From Actinomycetota bacterium (GTDB taxonomy: Bacteria; Actinomycetota; UBA4738; HRBIN12), in contig JBGPKY010000003.1 of the NCBI GenBank assembly GCA_041486205.1, positions 1 to 36,473 of the forward strand: DNA of 36,473 bases, read 5' to 3'. Positions 2,388 through 14,155 of the stretch are shown in pieces. Position 1 is the stretch's first letter. Every line of letters begins with the position of its first letter. The notes below the pieces were generated by a model that saw nothing but the letters and a program-made list of their open reading frames with translations, was not told the origin of the DNA and ran no database searches. The translations under genes were made by a program, and so were the position numbers.

Positions 2388-3500
2388 ATGAGGTACCTGG
2401 ACCGTCGGGGTTTCGCGGGGCTCCTCGCCCTCTTGGTTGAGCGTGGCCACGAGCTGATCGGCCCGACCGTGAGGGACGGCGCCATCGTCCTCGATCGCAT
2501 CGATGGCGTCGCCGAGCTGCCTCGGGGAGTCCGCGAGATACAGGGACCGGGTAGCTATCGGCTAGAGCGAACGGACGACGACCGCCTGTTCGCGTGGGCG
2601 CACGGCCCCGATTCCGGCAAGTCGTTCCTCTTCCCGTCGCGCGAGGTGGTTCTGAACACGTCACGAGCGAACGGCAACCTCACGGTGGAGCCGCCAGCGC
2701 TGCCGAGCACGAAGTACGCGTTCGTCGGCCTGCGTTCGTGTGACCTGCACGCGATCGAGGTGCAGGATCGAGTGTTCATGATCGCCGATCCCGCTTATCG
2801 CGCTCGCCGCGAGTCCGCCGTCTTCATCGGCCTGAATTGCGAGTTCCCGGGAAAGACCTGCTTCTGCTCCTCGATGGGAACCGGACCTCGGTGTTCGTTC
2901 GGCTACGACCTCGCGCTGACGGAACTCGACGACGGCTTCACGATCGAGGCAGGCACGCCGCTCGGGGAGGAGTTGCTGACGGCGCTCGCATCGCGCGAGG
3001 CCACGATGGATGAAGATCGCGCTTCCCTCGCGGTTACCGAACGAGCGGTTGCCGACATGGGGCGCACGGTCGACATCTCCGACATGCCCAACCTGCTCTA
3101 CCGCAACCGTGAACATCCGCGGTGGGACGACGTCGCCGCGCGATGCCTCGCGTGCACGAACTGCACGATGGTCTGTCCCACCTGCTTCTGCCACGACGTG
3201 GTCGACTCCATCTCGATCACAGGCACCGAGTCGACGCGAACGCGCGAGTGGGCGAGCTGCTTCAGCGAGGAGTTCTCCCACATGGCCGCGGGCGAGGTTC
3301 GCCATAGCGTGCGGTCGCGGTACCGACAATGGCTCACGCACAAGTTCGCTTCGTGGATCGACCAGTTCGGGACGTCGGGTTGCGTGGGCTGCGGCCGGTG
3401 CATCACCTGGTGTCCGGTCGGCATCGACGTGACGCAGGAGATCAATGCCATCCGAGCCACCGACGGCGAGGTCCGGCTCGCGGAGGCAGTGACGGCATGA
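2388..3500 (+). CDS. hyhB: Group 3b [NiFe]-hydrogenase (sulfhydrogenase) beta subunit, 4Fe-4S protein (HydB/HyhB, AsrA-like)
   Basis: GLRSCDL, CFCSSMGTGP, CLACTNCTMVCPTCFC, RYRQWLTHK and CVGCGRCITWCP; GGAGG RBS at 2376-2380. Confidence 0.9.
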   Translation: MRYLDRRGFAGLLALLVERGHELIGPTVRDGAIVLDRIDGVAELPRGVREIQGPGSYRLERTDDDRLFAWAHGPDSGKSFLFPSREVVLNTSRANGNLTVEPPALPSTKYAFVGLRSCDLHAIEVQDRVFMIADPAYRARRESAVFIGLNCEFPGKTCFCSSMGTGPRCSFGYDLALTELDDGFTIEAGTPLGEELLTALASREATMDEDRASLAVTERAVADMGRTVDISDMPNLLYRNREHPRWDDVAARCLACTNCTMVCPTCFCHDVVDSISITGTESTRTREWASCFSEEFSHMAAGEVRHSVRSRYRQWLTHKFASWIDQFGTSGCVGCGRCITWCPVGIDVTQEINAIRATDGEVRLAEAVTA

Positions 3501-4369
3501 GCATGGCCGCCGTCTCCGAGGCGGAGATCGCAGGCGGCGTCCGGCGCAAGGTGGCGACCATCCGTCGCGTGGCGATCGAGGCGTACGAGACCTTCACCTA
3601 TTGGGCAGTCCTGGAGGATCCGATCGTGCGGCGCGCCTACCGATTCGAGCCCGGGCAGATCAACATGCTCGGCCTGTTCGGGGTCGGTGAGATCCCGGTG
3701 AGCGTTTCCTCGGACCCGGCGCGGCCGCTGATACTCGGCCACACCATCAGGGCGTGCGGTCGGGTGACGAACGCGTTCAAGGATCTGAAGCGGGGCGACG
3801 AGATCACCATCCGCGGGCCGTTCGGTCGTCCGTGGCCTATCGCGCAAGCCCGGGGCGGGGATCTCCTCATCGTCGCCGGTGGCCTCGGCATGGCGCCGCT
3901 GCGCTCCGCCGTCTATACGGCGATCCGCCACCGCGGCTCGTTCCGCCGGTTGATCGTGCTGGTCGGAGCCCGCGGGCCCGAGCACATCCTGTACCCGTAC
4001 GAGATGGACATGTGGGCGAACTGGCTGAGGTCTCGCGGTATCGAGCTGCTGCTCACGGTCGATATCGCGGACGATTCCTGGCCCTACGACGAAGGCGTGG
4101 TCACGACGCTCTTCCCAAAGGCCCACATCGACCCGCGCGTGACGACGGTCTTCACCTGCGGGCCGGAAATCATGATGCGCTTCGCCATCCGGGACCTTCT
4201 CGCCCGCGGCGTTCCCGAACGGAGGATATGGCTTTCGATGGAGCGGAACATGCAGTGCGGCGTGAAGCTCTGCGGTCACTGTCAGCTCGGCCCGAAGTTC
4301 GTCTGCGCGGATGGGCCGGTGTTCCGCTACGACGAGATCGGCCCTCTCATGGAGGTGAGCGAGCTGTGA
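3497..4369 (+). CDS. hyhG: Group 3b hydrogenase gamma subunit, FAD/NAD(P)-binding with 2Fe-2S (HydG/HyhG)
   Basis: FEPGQ, RGPFG, AGGLGMAPLR, CGPEIMM and ERNMQCGVKLCGHC...CADGPVF; ATGA overlap with the upstream stop. Confidence 0.9.
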   Translation: MSMAAVSEAEIAGGVRRKVATIRRVAIEAYETFTYWAVLEDPIVRRAYRFEPGQINMLGLFGVGEIPVSVSSDPARPLILGHTIRACGRVTNAFKDLKRGDEITIRGPFGRPWPIAQARGGDLLIVAGGLGMAPLRSAVYTAIRHRGSFRRLIVLVGARGPEHILYPYEMDMWANWLRSRGIELLLTVDIADDSWPYDEGVVTTLFPKAHIDPRVTTVFTCGPEIMMRFAIRDLLARGVPERRIWLSMERNMQCGVKLCGHCQLGPKFVCADGPVFRYDEIGPLMEVSEL

Positions 4370-5166
4370 GCGAGGTCGCCGTGGCGAAGCCGCGGGTTGC
4401 CGTCTTCAAGATGGCGAGTTGCGACGGCTGTCAGCTGCAGCTGCTGGATGCGGAGGAGGCACTGCTCGAGCTCGCCGGTGCCATCGACATCGTCAACTTC
4501 GCGGAGGCGACCTCGCACGTCGAGCCCGGCCCGTACGACGTCACGCTGGTCGAGGGTTCGATCTCTACCCCCGAGCAGGTCGAACAGGTTAAGGAGATCC
4601 GCGAGCAAACCGCCGTGCTCATCACGATCGGCGCGTGCGCGACCTCGGGCGGCATCCAGGCGCTCCGCAACACGCGCGACCTGGACGGGTTCATACGGAC
4701 CGTCTACCCGACACCGGAGTACGTGAACTCACTCGAGACCTCCACGCCGATCGCCGAGCACGTTCGCGTCGACTACGAGCTGACCGGCTGTCCGGTCGAT
4801 CGCGGCCAGTTGCTGGGCGCGATCGCCTCCCTGCTCGCCGGCGCGGCTCCTCGCGTGTCCACGTCTCCGGTGTGCATCGAGTGCAAGCGCCGAGGCTACG
4901 TCTGCGTGATCGTCGCGAAGGGGGAACCGTGCCTCGGTCCGGTCACGCGAACCGGTTGTGGTGCTCTCTGTCCCGCGTTCGACCGAGGGTGCTACGGCTG
5001 CTTCGGACCCTCGCAGCCTCCGAACACCGCCTCGTTGGGCCGGCGGTTCATTGACCTCGGCCTCTCGCCTAAGGAGGCGGCCGACAAGTTCCGGTTCATC
5101 ACCGGGTGGGCGCCCCCGTTCCGTAAGGCGGCCGACGCGCTTGAGGAGGAGGTGGCCTCGGCGTGA
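4366..5166 (+). CDS. hyhS: Group 3b hydrogenase small (delta) subunit (HydD/HyhS)
   Basis: SCDGC, VEGS, IGACATSGG, GCP, CIEC and PCLGPVTRTGCGALCP...CYGC; GTGA overlap start; no Tat peptide. Confidence 0.9.
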   Translation: MSEVAVAKPRVAVFKMASCDGCQLQLLDAEEALLELAGAIDIVNFAEATSHVEPGPYDVTLVEGSISTPEQVEQVKEIREQTAVLITIGACATSGGIQALRNTRDLDGFIRTVYPTPEYVNSLETSTPIAEHVRVDYELTGCPVDRGQLLGAIASLLAGAAPRVSTSPVCIECKRRGYVCVIVAKGEPCLGPVTRTGCGALCPAFDRGCYGCFGPSQPPNTASLGRRFIDLGLSPKEAADKFRFITGWAPPFRKAADALEEEVASA

Positions 5167-6455
5167 CCCATCGGTCGGTCGAGGTTCCCGTGATCGCCCG
5201 CGTCGAAGGCGAGGGCGCGCTGCACCTCACGCTCGAGGGACGTGAGATCGTCGACCTTCGGCTCGAGATCTACGAGCCGCCGCGGTTCTTCGAGGCGTTC
5301 CTGGCCGGCCGTCACTACAGCGAGGTCCCCGACATCGTGCCGAGGATCTGCGGCATCTGCCCGGTCGCCTACCAGATGAGCGCGGTGCACGGCCTCGAGC
5401 GGCTGTTCGGCGTCGAGGTCTCGCCTGGGACGCACGAGTTGCGCCGGCTCCTGTACTGCGCCGAATGGATCGAGAGCCACGTGCTGCACATCTTCCTGCT
5501 CGCCGCGCCGGACTTCCTCGGCTATGAGAGCGCGCTCGCGATGGCGAAGGACCACAAGGACCTCGTCGAGCTGGCGCTTTCGATCAAGCGGGTCGGCAAC
5601 GACCTGCTCGCCGCGGTGGGCGGCCGGGAGATCCATCCGGTCTCCCCGCGGGTTGGCGGTTTCTCGAAGGCCCCCCGCAAGCGCGACCTCGATCCGTTCC
5701 TGCCCCGACTCGAAGCCGCCCTCGCGCAGATGCCCGGCATCGCCGACCTCGTCGCGTCGTTCCCGAGGCCAGCCTTCCCGCGCCCGGCCGAGATGGTCGC
5801 GATGACGAACCCCGAGGAGTACCCGATGAACGAGGGTGGCCTCGAGTCCACGAACGGCCGCGTGTTCGATGCGGTGACTTTCGAGCAGGTCTCCCGCGAG
5901 CTGCACGTCGAGCATTCGAACGCGCTTCACTCGGTGATGGCCGACACCGGCACGCCGTACTTCGTCGGCCCGCTCGCGAGGATCAACCTGAACGCCGACC
6001 GCCTCACGCCGGTCGCGCGCGAGTGCGCGAGGCGAGCGGGACTCGTGCTCCCGGAGTCCGACCCGTTCTTCTCGATGGCCGCGCGGGTCGCCGAAACGGC
6101 GGTCGCCCTCGAGGGATCCGTTCGGATCATCACGAACTACGAGCCGCCCGAGCCGCCGCAAGTGGAGGTGACGCCGCGAGCCGGCCGCGCGACGTGGGTG
6201 ACGGAGGCGCCGCGTGGGACCCTGTACCACCGCTACGACGTCGGCGACGACGGCATCATCCGCGAAGCGAAGATCGTCCCGCCCACCTCGCAGAACCTGC
6301 GGCATATGGAAGAAGACCTGCGCGCGTTCGTCCCCGGCGTCCTCGACAGCTCCGACGAACAGCTGACGCGCCTGTGCGAGATGGTCATCCGCAACTATGA
6401 CCCTTGCATCTCCTGCGCGACGCACTTCCTGCGGCTCGACATAGAGCGGCGATGA
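5163..6455 (+). CDS. hyhL: Group 3b [NiFe]-hydrogenase large (alpha) subunit (HydA/HyhL)
   Basis: RVEGEG, L1 RICGICP, EAPRG and L2 RNYDPCISCATH, followed by a short cleavable tail FLRLDIERR. Confidence 0.95.
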   Translation: MTHRSVEVPVIARVEGEGALHLTLEGREIVDLRLEIYEPPRFFEAFLAGRHYSEVPDIVPRICGICPVAYQMSAVHGLERLFGVEVSPGTHELRRLLYCAEWIESHVLHIFLLAAPDFLGYESALAMAKDHKDLVELALSIKRVGNDLLAAVGGREIHPVSPRVGGFSKAPRKRDLDPFLPRLEAALAQMPGIADLVASFPRPAFPRPAEMVAMTNPEEYPMNEGGLESTNGRVFDAVTFEQVSRELHVEHSNALHSVMADTGTPYFVGPLARINLNADRLTPVARECARRAGLVLPESDPFFSMAARVAETAVALEGSVRIITNYEPPEPPQVEVTPRAGRATWVTEAPRGTLYHRYDVGDDGIIREAKIVPPTSQNLRHMEEDLRAFVPGVLDSSDEQLTRLCEMVIRNYDPCISCATHFLRLDIERR

Positions 6456-6462
6456 GTCGCCG

Positions 6463-6948
6463 ATGGCTTCGGTTCGCGTTATCGCCTGCGGCAGTGAGGA
6501 TCTCGGCGACGACGCTGCGGGCTTGCTCGCGGTGCGCGACGCGCGATCGATGCTCGAGGTGCTCCCAGGGGTAGAGGTGATCGAGGCGGGACTCGGCCTG
6601 CGCATCCTCGACCTTCTGGACGGCGTCGACGCGGCGCTCGTGGTCGACGCCGTCCGCTCACCCGGCGGCGAGCGCCATCCCGGCGAGCTCGTCCGCATAG
6701 AAGCGGGCCCCGACGGATTGACCGCGGACATCGGTTCCTCGCTTTCCTCGCATGGGTTCGGCGTGGGGGAGGCGGTTGGTCTGGCGGCCGCGCTCGGGCG
6801 CATCCCTCGGGTTGTGTTCCTCGGGGTTGAGGCGGCCGGAGCCGAAGCGGGGCAACCACTTTCGGCTGCCGTCTCCGCGGCCTTCCCGGACCTGGTACGA
6901 GGGATCGTCGCCGAGGCCAAGAGCCTCATGGACACACTAGGGTCCTGA
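6463..6948 (+). CDS. Hydrogenase maturation endopeptidase (HyaD/HybD/HycI family)
   Basis: G....GDDAAG, VVDAV and SSHG motifs; directly downstream of the large subunit. Confidence 0.88.
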   Translation: MASVRVIACGSEDLGDDAAGLLAVRDARSMLEVLPGVEVIEAGLGLRILDLLDGVDAALVVDAVRSPGGERHPGELVRIEAGPDGLTADIGSSLSSHGFGVGEAVGLAAALGRIPRVVFLGVEAAGAEAGQPLSAAVSAAFPDLVRGIVAEAKSLMDTLGS

Positions 6949-6996
6949 GGCCGTTTCCCTAAGGCCGGTCCCACATCAGTGCGGGACCGTGGGCCT
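6940..6996 (+). promoter_or_regulatory. Degenerate DosR-like boxes upstream of the HybA-like gene
   Basis: GGGTCCTGAGGCCG (6940-6953), a GGTCCC half-site ending at 6972, and GGGACCGTGGGCCT (6983-6996). Confidence 0.45.
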
Positions 6997-7063
6997 ATAT
7001 CGATCCGGCCTCTCCGAACGAATCTATGAGCATAGGGATGAAGGCATCCGAGCGGAGGCGACG

Positions 7064-8056
7064 ATGTCCGCGGTAGCTGCCGGAACGGATCGCAGGGACG
7101 AACCCAGCGACCCGAGCCGGAGGAGGTTCCTCAAAGGTCTCGTCGTAACGGCCGGTGCGGCGAGCGTCGCCGCGACCATCCCGCAGCCGCGCAAGCGAGA
7201 GAGCCCGCTCGGCAGGCAACTCGCGGAGGAACACGCGAACGATCCCGCCCTCTTGATCGACCTGACGCGGTGCGTCGGCTGCGGCCGCTGCGTGAACGCA
7301 TGCAAGACGGACAATGGCCTTGCCTGGCGCGAGGACCAGCCGGCCCGCGGCCCCGACGCCGAGCTCGCGTCGAGCAACTGGACCGCGGTGAAGACGGAGT
7401 CGGTCCGCGGCCGCGACGGCCAGACCCGCTTCGTGAAGTCGCAGTGCATGCACTGTCTCGAGCCGGCGTGTGCTTCGGCGTGCTTCGTAAAGGCCCTGAA
7501 GAAGTCTCCGACTGGAGCCGTGACCTACGACGGCGACCTGTGCGTGGGGTGTCGCTACTGCCTCATGGCGTGTCCTTTCAGCGTACCGACGTTCGAATGG
7601 GACAAGACCTTCGGCCGCGTTGAGAAGTGCGACTTCTGCGTAGAGCGCACCTCGCAGGGCAAGCCCACCGCCTGCGCCGAGGTGTGCCCGGTCGGGACCC
7701 TGACGTTCGGCAAGAGAGGGGAACTGCTCCAGGAGGCCTGGCGGCGGATCGGTTCGCAGACCTACAAGTACGTCCCGCACGTCTACGGCGAGACCGAGGT
7801 CGGTGGAACGTCGATGCTGTACATCTCCGACGTGCCGTTCGAAGAGCTCGGGTTCCGCACCGGCTTGCCCACCACGCCACTTCCCCGATACACGTGGGAG
7901 ATCACGCGACTGCTCCCGCCTGTTGCGGCCGGGTTGGGCGCGACCATCATCTCGCTGTACCTGCGACGGAGGAAGCTGCTCCTCGAAGCGGAGGAAGCCG
8001 AAGGAGCCGCGAAAGCTGAAGGGAACGCTGCGACGAACGAGGGGGTGAGGGTGTGA
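7064..8056 (+). CDS. HybA/HmcB-like Tat-exported 4x[4Fe-4S] electron-transfer protein with C-terminal membrane anchor
   Basis: Tat motif SRRRFLK. Cys motifs CVGCGRCVNAC, CMHCLEPACASAC, CVGCRYCLMACP and KCDFC...PTACAEVCP. YGETEVGGTS and a C-terminal TM helix followed by RRRK. GGAGG RBS before ATG 7064. Confidence 0.85.
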   Translation: MSAVAAGTDRRDEPSDPSRRRFLKGLVVTAGAASVAATIPQPRKRESPLGRQLAEEHANDPALLIDLTRCVGCGRCVNACKTDNGLAWREDQPARGPDAELASSNWTAVKTESVRGRDGQTRFVKSQCMHCLEPACASACFVKALKKSPTGAVTYDGDLCVGCRYCLMACPFSVPTFEWDKTFGRVEKCDFCVERTSQGKPTACAEVCPVGTLTFGKRGELLQEAWRRIGSQTYKYVPHVYGETEVGGTSMLYISDVPFEELGFRTGLPTTPLPRYTWEITRLLPPVAAGLGATIISLYLRRRKLLLEAEEAEGAAKAEGNAATNEGVRV

Positions 8057-9297
8057 ACGCGCATCCGACGCCCTACGACAAGACGCGGCAGCGGTGGACC
8101 TTTCACTGGACACCGTTCCGCATGTTCTTGGCCGTGCTCCTCGTGATCGGGCTGTTCCTCATCGCCTACCGGCTCGTGTTCGGCCTCGGCCGGCCGACGA
8201 ACCTCACCGACCGTTGGCCGTGGGCGCTCTGGACGTGGTGGAAGCTGACCGGCGTCGCACTGGCCGGGGCCGGGTACTCCACCGCGCTCATGGTCCACTT
8301 CATGGGGAGGAAGCGCTGGCACGACATCGAACGCGGCGCTTTCGTCGTGTCGCTGCTCGGCTACCTGATGGTGTGCAGCGCCCTCATCCTGGATCTCGGG
8401 CAGTGGTACAACGCATGGCACCCGCTCTATTCCTGGGGCGTCCACTCGGTGATGTTCGAGTTGTACTACTGCATCAGCGCGTACACGGTCGTGCAGGTCG
8501 TCGAGTTCCTGTACATATTCGAAGAGCGGATCCCGTTCCCGCTACTGCACAGAGTCCTGAAGAAGATCTACGCACCGCTGCTCATCCTCGGCGCGATCCT
8601 TCCGGTGTTCCACCAGTCGGCGCTCTGCTCGCTCTACGTGATCGCGAAAGGCCGCGAGGACCCGCTGTGGTGGTCGATGCTCCTGCCGGTGTTCGCGGTC
8701 TTCACCTCCTTCTACATCGGTTCCTCGGTGGTGACGATCGAGAACTTCGTCGCGGAGAAGACCTACGGACGGCCCGTGCACATGCGGATCCTCGGCGAGA
8801 TGGTTCGGCTTTCGGGCGGGGTCATGTTCGTCTACCTCGCGCTGAAGGTCAGCGACTACTGGGTCCGCGGCGTGCTGCCGGAGCTGTTCAGCGGCAGCCT
8901 CCTCGGCAACATCGCGCTCGTCGAGCTCGGCCTCGGCGTCGTACTGCCGATGTTGATGTTCATGACGCCGTCGGTGCGTGCGTCGCGTCAGGGCATCGTG
9001 ACGGCCTCGGCGTTCGCGATCGGCGGTGTCGTGCTGAACCGATACGACATCGTGATCACCGGGATGGCGGCGTCGACGGGCCAGGGCTTCTACAGGCCGG
9101 CGTGGATGGAGGTCGGGTTCGTGATCGGCCTCGCGGCCGCCGTCGCGCTCGCGTATCTGTTCCTCGTGGAGAACTTCCCCGTCTACACTGAAGAAGATGT
9201 CGCTGTAGCCGCCGCCAGGCGGGCCGAGGAAGAGGCCCGCTTGCGCGCGAAAGCTGCCGTGATCGAGGCACGTCAGCGGGTCCTCATCGGGCGATAG
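8053..9297 (+). CDS. NrfD/PsrC-family (HybB/HmcC-like) integral membrane quinone-interacting subunit
   Basis: About 10 hydrophobic helices; TNLTDRWPW, LILDLG, SVMFE, HQSAL, NRYD and YRPAWME motifs of HybB/NrfD; GTGA overlap with the HybA-like gene. Confidence 0.85.
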   Translation: MNAHPTPYDKTRQRWTFHWTPFRMFLAVLLVIGLFLIAYRLVFGLGRPTNLTDRWPWALWTWWKLTGVALAGAGYSTALMVHFMGRKRWHDIERGAFVVSLLGYLMVCSALILDLGQWYNAWHPLYSWGVHSVMFELYYCISAYTVVQVVEFLYIFEERIPFPLLHRVLKKIYAPLLILGAILPVFHQSALCSLYVIAKGREDPLWWSMLLPVFAVFTSFYIGSSVVTIENFVAEKTYGRPVHMRILGEMVRLSGGVMFVYLALKVSDYWVRGVLPELFSGSLLGNIALVELGLGVVLPMLMFMTPSVRASRQGIVTASAFAIGGVVLNRYDIVITGMAASTGQGFYRPAWMEVGFVIGLAAAVALAYLFLVENFPVYTEEDVAVAAARRAEEEARLRAKAAVIEARQRVLIGR

Positions 9298-9342
9298 ACG
9301 CGTGCGCGATCGAGGGCGGCGCGAGCATCTAGGTAGACGGCT

Positions 9343-9380
9343 GGGACGTTCGGCCCGCGTTCCCTAGGGTCGTGTGACCC
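9343..9380 (+). promoter_or_regulatory. Tandem DosR/DevR-like boxes upstream of hypF
   Basis: GGGACGTTCGGCCC (9343-9356) and palindromic GGGTC-GTGT-GACCC (9367-9380). Confidence 0.65.
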
Positions 9381-9407
9381 GCCCCTGTTGCTCCGGACCC
9401 GGCCACG

Positions 9408-11717
9408 ATGGCATACATAGGGATGGATCGGAGGTCGGCGGTGGCCAGGGTCGCGTCCGGACGTGCGCGAGCGACGACCGCTCGCGAGATCGAGGTCCGG
9501 GGAGTGGTCCAGGGCGTCGGTTTCCGGCCTTTCATCTGGCGACTCGCGGGCGGCCTTAGGGTCACGGGATGGGTCCGCAACGACGCCGGCGTCGTGAGGA
9601 TCCACGCAGAAGCGGAGCCGGCCGTACTCGAACGGTTCTGCGCGGCGATCACGGACGAGGCGCCGCCCCTCGCTCGGATCGAGGAAGTCCGGTGGACTCC
9701 AGTTCCATCCGAGGGGTTCGACGGGTTCGCGGTCGCGGAGAGCGGGGTAGGCGAGGGCGGTGAACGGCTCGTCTCGCCCGATGTCGCCACGTGCGAGGCT
9801 TGCCTGAGCGAGCTGTTCGATCCGCGAGACCGCCGCTTCCGGTATGCGTTCATCAACTGCACGGATTGCGGGCCCCGGTTCACGATCATCGAACGGCTCC
9901 CGTACGACCGCGAACGAACCAGCATGAGTGTGTTCCCGATGTGCGAGGACTGCGCGCGCGAGTATCTGGATCCCGGTGACCGGAGGTTCCACGCGGAGCC
10001 GGTCGCTTGTCCCGCCTGCGGACCGAAGCTGTCCTTGCTCGGGTCCGGTTGGTCGCCGGCCCGGGGAGACCCGGTGGGCGAAGCCGCGTCCCGGCTGGCT
10101 CGTGGCGAGATCGTCGCCCTCAAAGGGCTCGGCGGATTCCACCTCGCGTGCGACGCGACGAACGAAGATGCGGTTTCGGAACTCCGCCGGCGGAAGGCCC
10201 GCCCTGATAAGCCGTTCGCGGTGATGGCCGCCGATGTGGAGGCTTCACGGGGGCTGTTCGAGATGACCGCAGCCGAAGTCGCCTTGCTCGAGTCAAGGAC
10301 GGCGCCGATCGTGTTGGTGCGGGATCTCGGACGGCTCGCCCCGTCAGTGGCGCCGGCGCATCGCCGGCAGGGTGCGATGTTGCCGTCGACGCCCTTGCAC
10401 CATCTGCTGCTGCGCGAAGCCGACCGACCGCTGGTCATGACGAGCGGGAACCGCAGCGACGAGCCGATCTGCATCTCCAACGACGACGCGCGGGAGCGAC
10501 TATCGAGGGTCGCGGACGCGTTCCTCGTCCACGACCGTGAGATCGTCTCGCGCTACGACGACAGCGTGACGCGCGTGTGGCGGGACGCGCCGGTGCTGAT
10601 GCGCAGGGCGCGGAGCTACGCGCCCTCGCCCATCGGGCTCGGCGTGTCGGTCGCTCCGACGCTCGGTGTCGGAGCGGAGCTGCACGGGGCGTTCTGCCTG
10701 GCGAGCGGTGACCGCGCCTTCCTCTCCCAGCACGTCGGCGATCTCGACTCCGAAGAAGCGATGCGCGCGTATACCGATGCGCTGCAACGGTATCGGGAGA
10801 TATTCGGTCTCGAACCGGAGGTCGTCGCGCACGACCTGCATCCGGACTTCCTGACGACGCGGTTCGCGGAGTCCCTCGGGTTACCCTCGGTCGCCGTCCA
10901 ACACCACCACGCACACGTTGCTGCGGTTATGGCGGAGCATAGGTTGGAGGGCTCGGTGATCGGTGTCGCGTTCGACGGGTTCGGGCTCGGTGAGGACGGA
11001 ACCGGGTGGGGCGGTGAGTTCTTCGCCTGTGACGCGTCGCACGCTGAGCGACTCGGCCACCTTCGGCTTGTGCGGCAGCCGGGGGGAGACGCGGCCGTGC
11101 GCGAACCGGTTCGGATGGCGATCGCGCACGCGGCCGACGCGGGTTGCCTCGACGCAACTTCCGTTCTGTTGGGAGACGACGCGAGGGACGTCGACGCCGT
11201 CACCGGCCAGATCGCGTCGGGGCTCGCCTCGCCGATGACGAGTTCCATGGGACGGTTGTTCGATGCCGTAGCGGCCCTTGCGGGCGTATGCCGCCGGGCC
11301 ACCTACGAAGGGCAACCTGCGATTTTGCTCGAGCAGGCGGCCGCAGCCGACGCACGCGGATACCCGTTCGAGCTCGCCCGCGAGCAGGGGCGAGTCGTAG
11401 TCGACACGCGCCCGATCGTGGGGGCGGTCGTGGCCGACCTTACGGCGGGGGTCTCCGCGGGTGTCGTCGCCGGCCGGTTCCATGCGACGATCGCGGTCGT
11501 GGCTTTCGATGTGTGCCGGGAGATCCGAGAGGGAACGGGGCTCCGCCGCGTGTGTCTAGGCGGTGGCGTGTTCATGAACGACCTGCTGCTCACCGACCTG
11601 GTCACCCGACTGGATGCGAGCGGGTTCGAGGTGTTTGTGCCGCGCGAGGTTCCGGTCGGTGACGGCGGGATCGCGCTCGGGCAGGTACTGGTCGCGCACG
11701 GGCGGAGGGGGGGATAG
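9408..11717 (+). CDS. hypF: Carbamoyltransferase HypF
   Basis: Acylphosphatase VQGVGFRPF, zinc fingers CxxC...CTDCGPRF and CxxC...CPACGP, KGLGGFHL, QHHHAH, SSMGRLFD and DGGIALGQ. The true start may be slightly downstream. Confidence 0.95.
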   Translation: MAYIGMDRRSAVARVASGRARATTAREIEVRGVVQGVGFRPFIWRLAGGLRVTGWVRNDAGVVRIHAEAEPAVLERFCAAITDEAPPLARIEEVRWTPVPSEGFDGFAVAESGVGEGGERLVSPDVATCEACLSELFDPRDRRFRYAFINCTDCGPRFTIIERLPYDRERTSMSVFPMCEDCAREYLDPGDRRFHAEPVACPACGPKLSLLGSGWSPARGDPVGEAASRLARGEIVALKGLGGFHLACDATNEDAVSELRRRKARPDKPFAVMAADVEASRGLFEMTAAEVALLESRTAPIVLVRDLGRLAPSVAPAHRRQGAMLPSTPLHHLLLREADRPLVMTSGNRSDEPICISNDDARERLSRVADAFLVHDREIVSRYDDSVTRVWRDAPVLMRRARSYAPSPIGLGVSVAPTLGVGAELHGAFCLASGDRAFLSQHVGDLDSEEAMRAYTDALQRYREIFGLEPEVVAHDLHPDFLTTRFAESLGLPSVAVQHHHAHVAAVMAEHRLEGSVIGVAFDGFGLGEDGTGWGGEFFACDASHAERLGHLRLVRQPGGDAAVREPVRMAIAHAADAGCLDATSVLLGDDARDVDAVTGQIASGLASPMTSSMGRLFDAVAALAGVCRRATYEGQPAILLEQAAAADARGYPFELAREQGRVVVDTRPIVGAVVADLTAGVSAGVVAGRFHATIAVVAFDVCREIREGTGLRRVCLGGGVFMNDLLLTDLVTRLDASGFEVFVPREVPVGDGGIALGQVLVAHGRRGG

Positions 11718-11721
11718 CGGG

Positions 11722-11991
11722 ATGTGCCTCGGCGTTCCGGGCAAGGTGATCGAGGTCTTCGAGGAGGAAGGCCTGCGGATGGGAACCGCCGACTTCGGGG
11801 GGATCAAGCGGAAGGTCTGCCTCGAATACGCGCCGGAGGTTGAGGTTGGGCGCTTCGTCGTGATCCACGTCGGGTTCGCCATCTCCATCGTCGACGAAGA
11901 GGAGGCTGCCCGCTCCTACGCCTTGCTGGAGGAGATGGGGAACCTCGAGGGCATCGACCTGCCGCAGGACCCGGAGGGGGTGCGCGGGTGA
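11722..11991 (+). CDS. hypC: Hydrogenase assembly chaperone HypC
   Basis: N-terminal MCLGVPG and VIHVGFAI. Confidence 0.95.
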
Positions 11992-13091
11992 AGTTCCTCG
12001 ATGAGTACCGCGACGAACGGATCGCCCGCGCCCTGTTGGAGGACATCGCACGAGCGGCCACGCGGCCTTGGGTGCTGATGGAGGTCTGCGGCGGGCAGAC
12101 CCACACCCTGATCCGCCAGGGGATCGACCAGTTGCTGCCGTCGAACGTCGAGCTGGTCCACGGACCCGGTTGCCCCGTGTGCGTCACGCCGCTCGCGCTC
12201 ATCGACGACGCCATAGCTACCGCGAAACGGCCCGACGCGATCCTGTGTTCGTTCGGAGACATGCTCCGTGTGCCTGGTTCCGAGGAGGACCTTTTCATGG
12301 CGCGCGCGGCGGGCGGCGACGTGCGCGTCGTCTACTCGCCTCTCGACGCGCTGGAGATCGCTCGGCGGAACCCGGACAAGACGATCGTGTTCTTCGCGGT
12401 CGGCTTCGAGACGACCGCGCCTGCGAACGCGATGGCGGTTCGGCAGGCGAAGCAGCTCGGTATCGCGAACTTCGCGCTGCTCGTGGCGCACGTCCTGGTG
12501 CCGCCGGCGATCATGGCGATCCTCGTGTCGCCGGGGAACCGCGTACAGGGGTTCCTCGCGCCCGGCCACGTATGCGCGGTGCAGGGCTGGCGTGAGTACG
12601 AGCCGATCGCGCGCGGATTCGGCGTGCCACTCGTCGTAACGGGCTTCGAGCCGATCGACCTGCTCGAAGGCATCCTCATGGCGGTGAAACAGCTCGAGGA
12701 GGGCCGCGCGGAGGTGCAGAACCAATACGTGCGAGCCGTGCAGCGGGACGGCAACGCTCCCGCACAGGCGGTCGTCGCCGAGGTGTTCGAGACGTGCGAT
12801 CGCGCCTGGCGCGGGATCGGCGTGATCGAGAAGAGCGGGCTTCGCCTGCGTGAGGCCTACCGAGCCCACGACGCCGAACTCCTCTTCCCGCGCGAAGGTG
12901 TCCCAGCGAGCGAGTCCGAGATCTGCATCGCCGGACTCGTTCTCCGGGGTCGCGCGAAACCGAGTGAGTGTCCGGCCTACGGCACGCTTTGCACGCCCGA
13001 GAAGCCGCTCGGCGCCCCGATGGTGTCCTCCGAAGGCGCCTGCGCTGCATACTTCTTGGCCGGACGAGAACGCGTGGAGGCTGCGACGTGA
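11988..13091 (+). CDS. hypD: Hydrogenase formation protein HypD
   Basis: [25 protein letters not shown] and [14 protein letters not shown]. Confidence 0.96.
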
Positions 13092-14155
13092 ACGCCGGGG
13101 AACGCGAGTTCCAGATGGTCTGCCCGGTCCCGCTTCCGCCTGGCGAGACGATCCTGTTGGGCCACGGCAGCGGCGGGAAGCTCACCGCGCAACTGATCCG
13201 CGAGCTGTTCGTCCCGGTCCTGTCCGGAAGCGACGGCGACGCATCGCAGCTCTCCCGCCTCGGTGACGCGGCCGTGGTCGAGGTGAACGGCGTCAGGCTC
13301 GCGTTCAGCACGGACTCGTTCGTGGTCCAGCCGGCGTTCTTCCCCGGGTCGAACATCGGCGAGCTGGCGATCAACGGAACCGTGAACGATCTCGCGATGA
13401 TGGGCGCCAAGCCGCTGTACCTCTCGGCCGCGCTGATCCTCGAGGAAGGGCTGCCGATGGCGACGCTCGGCATCGTCACGGCGTCGATGGCGGAGGCGTG
13501 CAAGCTGGCAGGCGTCGCCCTGGTTACAGGCGACACGAAGGTCGTCGAACGCGGCAGCGCCGATGGGCTGTTCATCACGACCTCGGGGATCGGCGTCGTG
13601 CCCGAAGGGGTCGAGGTCGGCCCCGCTCGCGCGCGACCCGGCGACGTCGTCCTCGTTTCCGCTCCGGTCGGCTCGCACGGGGTCGCCGTGATGTCGCGAC
13701 GCGCCGGGATCGAGTTCGAGTCCGAGCTCGTCTCAGATACCGCGCCGCTCACCGGTCTCGTCGAGGCGATGCTTGCCGCCGGGGATGTCCGGTGCCTGCG
13801 CGACGCGACCCGCGGAGGTCTCGCGAGTGTGCTGAACGAACTGGCCGAAGCCTCCCGCGTATCGATCACTGCGGTCGAGAGCGACGTTCCGGTGCTCCCC
13901 GCCGTCCGCGCCGCTTGCGAGATGCTCGGTCTCGACCCTCTCTACGTCGCGAACGAAGGGGTCTGCGTCGCCATAGTCTCTCCGGAGGACGCCGACAACG
14001 TCCTCGCCGCCGCGCGCGCGAACCCCCTCGGCGCGAACGCCGCCACGATCGGTACGGTTGGCGACGGCTCTCCGAAGGTGTCGCTGAAGACCGGCCTCGG
14101 CGTGACGCGGCCGCTGCTGCTCCTCACCGGCGACCAGCTCCCGCGGATCTGCTGA
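13088..14155 (+). CDS. hypE: Hydrogenase expression/formation protein HypE
   Basis: HGSGG, GTVNDLA, GDTKVV, RDATRGG, ANEG and C-terminal PRIC; GTGA overlap with the hypD stop. Confidence 0.95.

Follow-up and report, generated by a model that had tools for sequence, protein, structure and literature searches.

The stretch of DNA analysed here (the window, 36,473 nucleotides) is the whole of contig C3 (JBGPKY010000003.1) of an Actinomycetota metagenome-assembled genome (MAG; GCA_041486205.1), an assembly of 2.74 Mb in 346 contigs that is 96% complete with 4% contamination. Positions 2388-14155 are occupied by eleven tightly packed genes on the + strand in the order hyhBGSL, a maturation protease gene, a hybA-like gene, a hybB-like gene and hypFCDE. 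In this family the order hyhBGSL-protease-hypFCDE is conserved as the operon of a group 3b [NiFe]-hydrogenase (Hyh), a cytoplasmic, NAD(P)-linked enzyme, and in the window a pair of genes, hybAB, is placed between the protease gene and hypF. The pair is probably a quinone module that was retained from a hydrogenase-2 (Hyd-2)-type cassette and is reused with an extracytoplasmic partner, not bound to Hyh.

The inserted pair and its operon

The first of the two inserted genes (7064..8056, +; read from the ATG at 7064, with a GTG at 6989 as an alternative) encodes a HybA/HmcB/FdnH-like protein with a twin-arginine translocation (Tat) signal, four [4Fe-4S] motifs and a hydrophobic C-terminal tail. 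It matches Fer4_11 and, among the NCBIfam models, HmcB (E 3.6e-79) and HybA (E 1.9e-64). The signal reads SRRRFLKG followed by a hydrophobic stretch, and the RRxFL motif recurs in all nine hyh-linked HybA copies whose N-terminus was read. Exactly 16 cysteines are present in the four ferredoxin motifs, and they are invariant across 19 HybA sequences. The tail is an 18-residue hydrophobic segment (residues 283-300, mean Kyte-Doolittle 1.71) that is followed by RRRK and is left unflagged by a cruder 19-residue scan (threshold 1.5); in 17 of 17 aligned HybA sequences the C-terminal tail is hydrophobic. A profile of 19 relatives of the protein matches FdnH of E. coli formate dehydrogenase-N (1kqf_B) over nearly the whole length with an E value of 2.2e-55.

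The second inserted gene (8053..9297, +) encodes a HybB/HmcC-like membrane subunit of the NrfD family (Pfam NrfD 2.1e-10, over the cut-off; NCBIfam HybB 1.6e-63, HmcC 2.1e-52). Nine peak windows of hydrophobicity, of which two pairs overlap, give about seven distinct hydrophobic segments. The protein is 26% identical to E. coli HybB, and it shares 14 of the 25 quinone-site and proton-path residues listed for the latter in a review (PMC8076601), namely R89, S95, Y99, Y141, E148, E155, H184, S186, E291, R329, D109, S129, E133 and S190. R89, Y99, E148 and H184 are backed by mutants according to that review (PMC8076601). S105 of the E. coli protein is replaced by Ala. A search of solved structures with the HybB-like protein returned none at E 0.001.

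The hydrogenase that precedes the pair is a complete four-subunit group 3b set, made up of an Fe-S (B), a flavin/NAD(P) (G), a small (S) and a large (L) subunit. The hyhB gene (2388..3500, +) encodes a HydB/AsrA-like Fe-S subunit (Pfam Fer4_22, E 1.7e-32; NCBIfam sulfhyd_HydB, 3.4e-45, under the equivalog cut-off). It is followed by hyhG (3503..4369, +; ATG read at 3503), whose product binds FAD and NAD(P) and has a 2Fe-2S site (NAD_binding_1 and DHODB_Fe-S_bind; NCBIfam PRK08345, 1.7e-58). The small subunit gene hyhS (about 4375..5166, +) matches Oxidored_q6 and, from residue 212 of a long open frame, HydD (3.1e-54); position 4375 is where the homology begins, the start codon not being fixed, and no signal peptide is present. 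HyhL (5163..6455, +) is a [NiFe] large subunit of group 3b type (ShyA, 2.9e-71) with the motifs RICGIC and DPCISCATH, which carry both CxxC pairs. Among solved structures it is best matched by two alpha subunits, one from sulfhydrogenase I and one from the cytosolic NiFe hydrogenase of T. kodakarensis, at full length and with an E value of 2e-65 (sulfhydrogenase I alpha over residues 6-425), and sulfhydrogenase I alpha outranks the Mvh, Hox and Frh types. The hydrogenase maturation endopeptidase (6463..6948, +) belongs to Pfam HycI and scores over the cut-off of TIGR00072 (8.2e-23). The order B, G, S, L and then protease is that of Pyrococcus sulfhydrogenase I and mycobacterial Hyh, and family and structure matches agree on this. 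The Hyh of the window is itself unremarkable; the sole difference from these group 3b relatives is the hybAB insert ahead of hypF.

Downstream of the pair, and assigned by Pfam, are hypF (9408-11717), hypC (11722-11991), hypD (11988-13091) and hypE (13088-14155), all on the + strand, with start/stop overlaps of hypC with hypD and of hypD with hypE. The intergenic gaps along the eleven genes are, in order, 8, 5, -4, 7, 115, -4, 110, 4, -4 and -4 bases. Terminator-like sites are no more frequent than chance would give, six as against 4.5 expected, and each lies within a gene.

Neither Pfam, NCBIfam nor the reading frames displaced any gene from where the initial annotation had put it, and the description given there of a Tat-exported, C-anchored 4x[4Fe-4S] protein agrees with the signal and cysteines reported above and is compatible with the tail. 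The same annotation held that none of the four Hyh subunits has a Tat peptide, and two scans are in accord with it. No hydrophobic segment was found in the Hyh subunits by a 19-residue scan (threshold 1.5). A relaxed genome-wide scan for an RR motif with a hydrophobic stretch flagged no Hyh subunit, and on contig C3 it flagged only position 7118.

An assembly artefact at the junction of hyh and hybAB was considered and ruled out by contigs from sediment metagenomes sequenced in separate runs, of which one may represent the sample that the window itself came from, together with eight other assemblies that have the same junction. The protease-hybA junction is bridged by contig X3 over 6268-7099 and the hybA-hybB junction by X3 over 7463-8318. 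Similarly, the hybB-hypF junction is bridged by X2 over 8852-9855 and also by X1 and X3.

The slot between the protease gene and hypF in relatives

The family was surveyed in 223 genomes of 33 genera, and HybB-like genes were taken at E ≤ 1e-20. Such genes are present in 13 of the 223 genomes and in five of the 33 genera. [NiFe] large subunits are found in 65 genomes, and 52 of these, whose hydrogenase class was not typed one by one, are without hybAB. The surroundings of the locus are conserved in the family and consist of a LiaF-like gene, a NAPRTase gene on the other strand, hyhBGSL, the protease gene, a variable slot, hypFCDE, an agmatinase gene and a zincin gene.

The content of the slot differs among genomes. 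In all four HybB-less genomes examined (G230, G018, G005 and G013) it is empty, and hyhBGSL and the protease gene run directly into hypFCDE. In G009, G089 and G133 it holds a Hyd-2-like small and large subunit followed by hybAB. In G160, G161, G163 and G164 it holds hybAB alone, in the same order as in the window; the G164 locus consists of broken tblastn pieces, which are interpreted as assembly frameshifts. hybAB alone is also found in G034, where two contigs were joined by a 141-base exact overlap, while in G030 and HR12/G158 hyh, the protease gene and hybAB are followed by the contig end. The slot of G162 contains hybAB, then a small subunit and a large one, and then a second hybAB. G030 has a further, separate set of small subunit, large subunit and hybAB on the same contig. 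The hybAB-alone state amounts to at least eight genomes in three genera. A gene order seen in no relative would, according to the initial annotation, have argued against a novel complex; the order proves to be conserved in relatives.

In every relative with a Hyd-2-like dimer, the dimer has its own adjacent hybAB. In five of the 13 HybB carriers, hyhL is the only [NiFe] large subunit: G000 (96% complete), G160 (88%), G163 (87%), G034 (64%) and G158 (66%). The only additional hydrogenase of G161 (95%) has its small and large subunit genes separated by a membrane open reading frame and an HdrD-like gene and has its own anchor; we take it to be of the Isp type. Its locus (L069:1772-9182) adjoins DsrE-like, glycine-cleavage-H-like and lipoate-ligase genes. 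The closest relatives that the pair has beyond Actinomycetota come after a Tat [FeFe]-hydrogenase (L022, L023 and L044) or a formate dehydrogenase (L027 and L038) in all five loci examined.

Several further observations were made at these loci. In genomes of genus g31 with hybAB alone, hybB and hypF are separated by a second protease-like gene (L063:11280-11813; also L064, L062 and L061). Compared with the G089 homologue, it shows changes in the N-terminal Gly-Asn...Asp-Glu-Gly motif and in a His, its centre is near-identical among species, and the gene is absent from the window's genome. In G034 a Tat molybdopterin oxidoreductase (TRRQFLKG; L010:337-2700, - strand) lies about 3 kb downstream of hybAB, past a peptidase gene, a luciferase-like gene and the agmatinase gene; no B or C subunit is reached before the contig stops, and the enzyme has no counterpart in the window's genome. 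The HR12 bin has two hybB sequences, one after hyh (end of L021) and one before hypF (start of L042), which are 83% identical over 497 bases. This degree of identity rejects the two pieces as one gene, and they represent two genes or two strains. In G165, an overlap between the hyh contig and the contig with a hydrogenase and hybAB was sought and none was found.

Descent of the pair and selection

The HybB tree contained 34 rows, three of 37 rows having been dropped for being shorter than 300 residues. A concatenated HybA and HybB tree of 21 rows comprised the actinobacterial copies (minus the broken copy of G164 and three fragments), one Acidobacteriota row and four Bacillota rows as outgroup. 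In the concatenated tree the window's pair forms a clade with those of G034, G163, G162a, G160 and G161 (support 100/99), all six being hyh-linked copies. The sister of this clade is the hydrogenase-linked pair G162b and G133 (97/92), and the joint support is 100/100. Another hyh-linked clade, made up of G030a and HR12 (100/100), is joined with weak support (81/76). The outgroups and basal rows are all linked to a catalytic subunit. On the simplest reading, the tree would indicate that the pair descends from a module linked to a hydrogenase and that the orphan state has arisen or been kept at least twice.

At the alignment site of E. coli HybB Asp58, a Lys together with a deletion is common to the whole eight-row clade, the hydrogenase-linked G133 and G162b included; other actinobacterial copies keep Asp. 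In the trees of the flanking genes, the hyp tree recovers genus g31 and the hyh tree puts G165 with the window. The Hyh of G165 (genus g31; L070) is the closest to that of the window, 81% over 1320 columns, though its hyp genes group with g31. This suggests either an exchange of hyh between genera or a binning problem.

Ratios of nonsynonymous to synonymous substitution (dN/dS) were calculated by the Nei-Gojobori method among three genomes without a Hyd-2-like dimer, G160, G161 and G163. They are 0.13-0.23 for hybA and 0.10-0.28 for hybB. The neighbouring genes give 0.11-0.15 (hyhL), 0.15-0.25 (hyhB), 0.24 (protease) and 0.11-0.17 (hypF). The hybAB genes, with ratios like those of their neighbours, are therefore under purifying selection.

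These ratios bear on the possibility that the pair is a functionless remnant, either not yet decayed or kept only through its place inside an essential operon. An origin by loss of catalytic genes, the lack of any partner found and the change of the quinone-site Asp all speak for a remnant, and a relic of a lost group 1 hydrogenase had been among the readings of the initial annotation. As to origin, that reading agrees with the small subunit, large subunit and hybAB that relatives have at the same spot, and with the tree. As to decay it fails, since several species share the state with hybAB only, and the dN/dS of the pair equals that of the neighbouring genes. The frames are intact in all hyh-linked copies but that of G164, dN/dS between G160 and G161 (both without the dimer) is as low as for the neighbours, and conservation extends to the 16 cysteines, the Tat motif and most proton-path residues. 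We consider a functionless remnant distinctly improbable, and a retained, reused module the better description of the pair.

Search for a partner and function of the pair

A catalytic partner for HybAB was sought by profile searches of the window genes and none was found, just as the initial annotation had it. In the whole MAG, PF00374 gives one match over its cut-off, which is hyhL, and a second, weak match, which is NuoD. Searches by tblastn with the Hyd-2-like small and large subunits of relatives produced just weak matches to hyhL and to the nuo contig C126. The MAG holds one NrfD gene and one Fer4_11 gene, with no second of either. No [FeFe]-hydrogenase and no Tat molybdopterin enzyme of the bis-pyranopterin guanine dinucleotide type was found in it. 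The molybdopterin matches are NuoG, which belongs to a nuo cluster, and an enzyme that is linked to FdhD and has no Tat signal. Tat-like motifs were otherwise found in the MAG in solute-binding lipoproteins, one phosphodiesterase, one sulfite-oxidase-like protein and two Rieske proteins. The sulfite-oxidase-like protein (contig C67) was considered as a partner and dropped as uninformative: its relatives are multi-copy, 27-47% identical, and present in four of the five orphan-bearing genomes.

Two side observations concern these matches. The FdhD-linked enzyme (L057:1719-2404 and L005:2-1657, on contigs C98 and C285) is without the Fe4S4 domain at the N terminus, and its gene is divided between two contig ends, where slightly differing versions of the same stretch are found; at the active-site position, which is Sec or Cys in formate dehydrogenases, the frame has a TGA codon. 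NuoD-type genes are present on two separate contigs (L003:1074-2264 and L056:855-2258), for which a second complex I or a strain duplication is possible.

An exported uptake hydrogenase could be present in the organism and missing from the assembly, in which case HybAB would take part in H2 cycling. The MAG is in 346 contigs with completeness estimated at 96%, and the relatives G030 and G162 also hold a Hyd-2-like enzyme. Nevertheless, neither Pfam nor tblastn detected such an enzyme in the MAG, the same blank is seen in G160, G163, G034 and G158, and each Hyd-2-like dimer of relatives has a hybAB of its own alongside. The suggestion of the initial annotation that an exported uptake enzyme is encoded elsewhere is accordingly very improbable, no group 1 hydrogenase, hybO/hybC pair or Tat molybdoenzyme having turned up in the assembly.

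Alternatively, HybAB could serve Hyh directly. In a physical hybrid, Hyh or its HyhSL core would dock on HybAB, for instance by riding out on the Tat signal of HybA, and a single set of catalytic genes would supply an NAD(P)-linked enzyme in the cytoplasm as well as an H2:menaquinone oxidoreductase facing outwards. The position right after the hyh protease gene is conserved in at least eight genomes of three genera, the state has arisen or been kept at least twice, selection maintains it in genomes that have no other hydrogenase, and in G162 a hybAB copy precedes Hyd-2-like genes that have their own copy. Topologically, however, such a complex is unlikely. HybA, with its Tat signal and putative tail anchor, would face outwards, since the signal is kept in all hyh-linked copies seen, and the Hyh subunits are free of signals and of hydrophobic segments. 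The NrfD family is described in a review as having no redox cofactor for transmembrane electron transfer (PMC8076601). With Hyh in the cytoplasm and NrfD subunits lacking such a cofactor, HybAB would be unable to reach Hyh. Moreover, 52 of the 65 family genomes with a [NiFe] large subunit, their hydrogenases being typed only in part, do without hybAB, all four loci examined join hyh and protease directly to hypF, and the lengths of the Hyh subunits are ordinary. A complex prediction of HyhS (11-row alignment) with the periplasmic domain of HybA, residues 45-280 (19-row alignment), scored 0.01 against a mark of 0.32, and, run with no controls, counts neither for nor against binding.

The hybrid between NAD(P)H/H2 and menaquinone that the initial annotation had envisaged thus gains no support, and we regard it as highly improbable. 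It is barely credible in the more specific form in which the hyh-linked HybAB would be the group 3b enzyme's own membrane arm and part of the HyhSL core would be exported on the Tat signal of HybA to act as an outward H2:menaquinone oxidoreductase. If this were true, a single gene set would run an internal H2 cycle, from NAD(P)H to H2 inside and from H2 to menaquinone outside.

The predicted outward topology of HybA, the lack of a cofactor across the membrane and the many [NiFe] carriers without hybAB lead us to read the pair as a retained, reused quinone module. Its ancestor would be a Hyd-2-type uptake cassette of Tat small subunit, large subunit, HybA and HybB, which is still at the same spot in relatives and whose catalytic dimer would have been lost here. 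HybA would be exported by Tat and held by its tail at the outer face of the membrane, and its four [4Fe-4S] clusters would wire an extracytoplasmic redox partner, or a soluble acceptor or donor, to the quinone site of HybB, which appears to retain most residues of the proposed proton path. The pair is probably co-transcribed with hyh and hyp and would make no contact with Hyh, so that the link between them may go at most through shared regulation and the redox state of the cell. The gene order, the signal and cofactor motifs, the recurrence of the state, the purifying selection and the lack of a known partner in the assembly are matters of observation.

Three known systems can be compared with the pair. 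E. coli hydrogenase-2 (hybOABCDEFG) likewise combines a Tat-signal Fe-S protein of 16 cysteines with an NrfD-type subunit, the HybA and HybB models are the best or second-best NCBIfam matches to the window's pair, and relatives of the window join the module to a Hyd-2-like small and large subunit. It differs in that the window is without HybO and HybC, and the gene order is O, A, B, C in E. coli and small, large, A, B in the relatives. The Hmc complex of Desulfovibrio has in HmcB/HmcC the same type of two-protein module from periplasm to quinone, and HmcB is the top NCBIfam match to the Fe-S protein; no cytochrome c or HmcDEF-like gene is present in the window. By sequence, the solved structure closest to the HybA-like protein is chain B of PDB 1kqf, the FdnH subunit of formate dehydrogenase-N from E. 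coli. FdnH is partnered by FdnG and a cytochrome b, not by an NrfD subunit, and no FdnG-like Tat enzyme is present in the window's genome. The pair would work in the manner of the HybA/HybB arm of hydrogenase-2 or of HmcB/HmcC, yet it fails the equivalog cut-offs and lacks the defining neighbourhood.

Several points weigh against a retained and working module of Hyd-2 descent. The NCBIfam scores stay below the cut-offs throughout, with 266 bits for HmcB (cut-off 420), the best match, and 217.8 for HybA (cut-off 263), the second, for the HybA-like protein, and 215.4 for HybB (cut-off 450) and 179 for HmcC (cut-off 550) for the HybB-like protein. Asp58 of E. coli HybB is tied to quinone binding in the review cited (PMC8076601), and in the window it is a Lys (HybB residue 64, 8242-8244) beside a one-residue deletion. 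An approximately unbiased (AU) test rejects a single clade of all eight hyh-linked copies (p 6e-11), a group that was named after the tree had been seen. At some points the trees of hyh, hyp and hybAB conflict, so that the cassette and its flanks have evidently recombined or moved among relatives, and no single order of events follows from them. More distant pairs give higher and less reliable dN/dS (0.50 for hybB between G000 and G160), and such ratios are rough in a genome of 68% G+C. None of the RNA runs searched for window positions 5200-9400 contains the stretch. All genomes are MAGs, in which absence means not found in the assembly. As no partner was found, the claim of a working module draws on selection and motifs.

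A full-text search of the literature for hybAB inside a group 3b operon found no description. NrfD-type modules have been described as arms of catalytic enzymes; here selection maintains such an arm in several species of actinobacteria without a known enzyme for it, and it sits within the operon of a cytoplasmic hydrogenase. For annotation, H2 uptake should not be inferred from hybA/hybB matches alone. The identity of the electron partner of HybAB would show in what way respiratory modules come to be reused once their catalytic partner has gone, and it would add a quinone-linked activity to a lineage that is widespread in soil and sediment.

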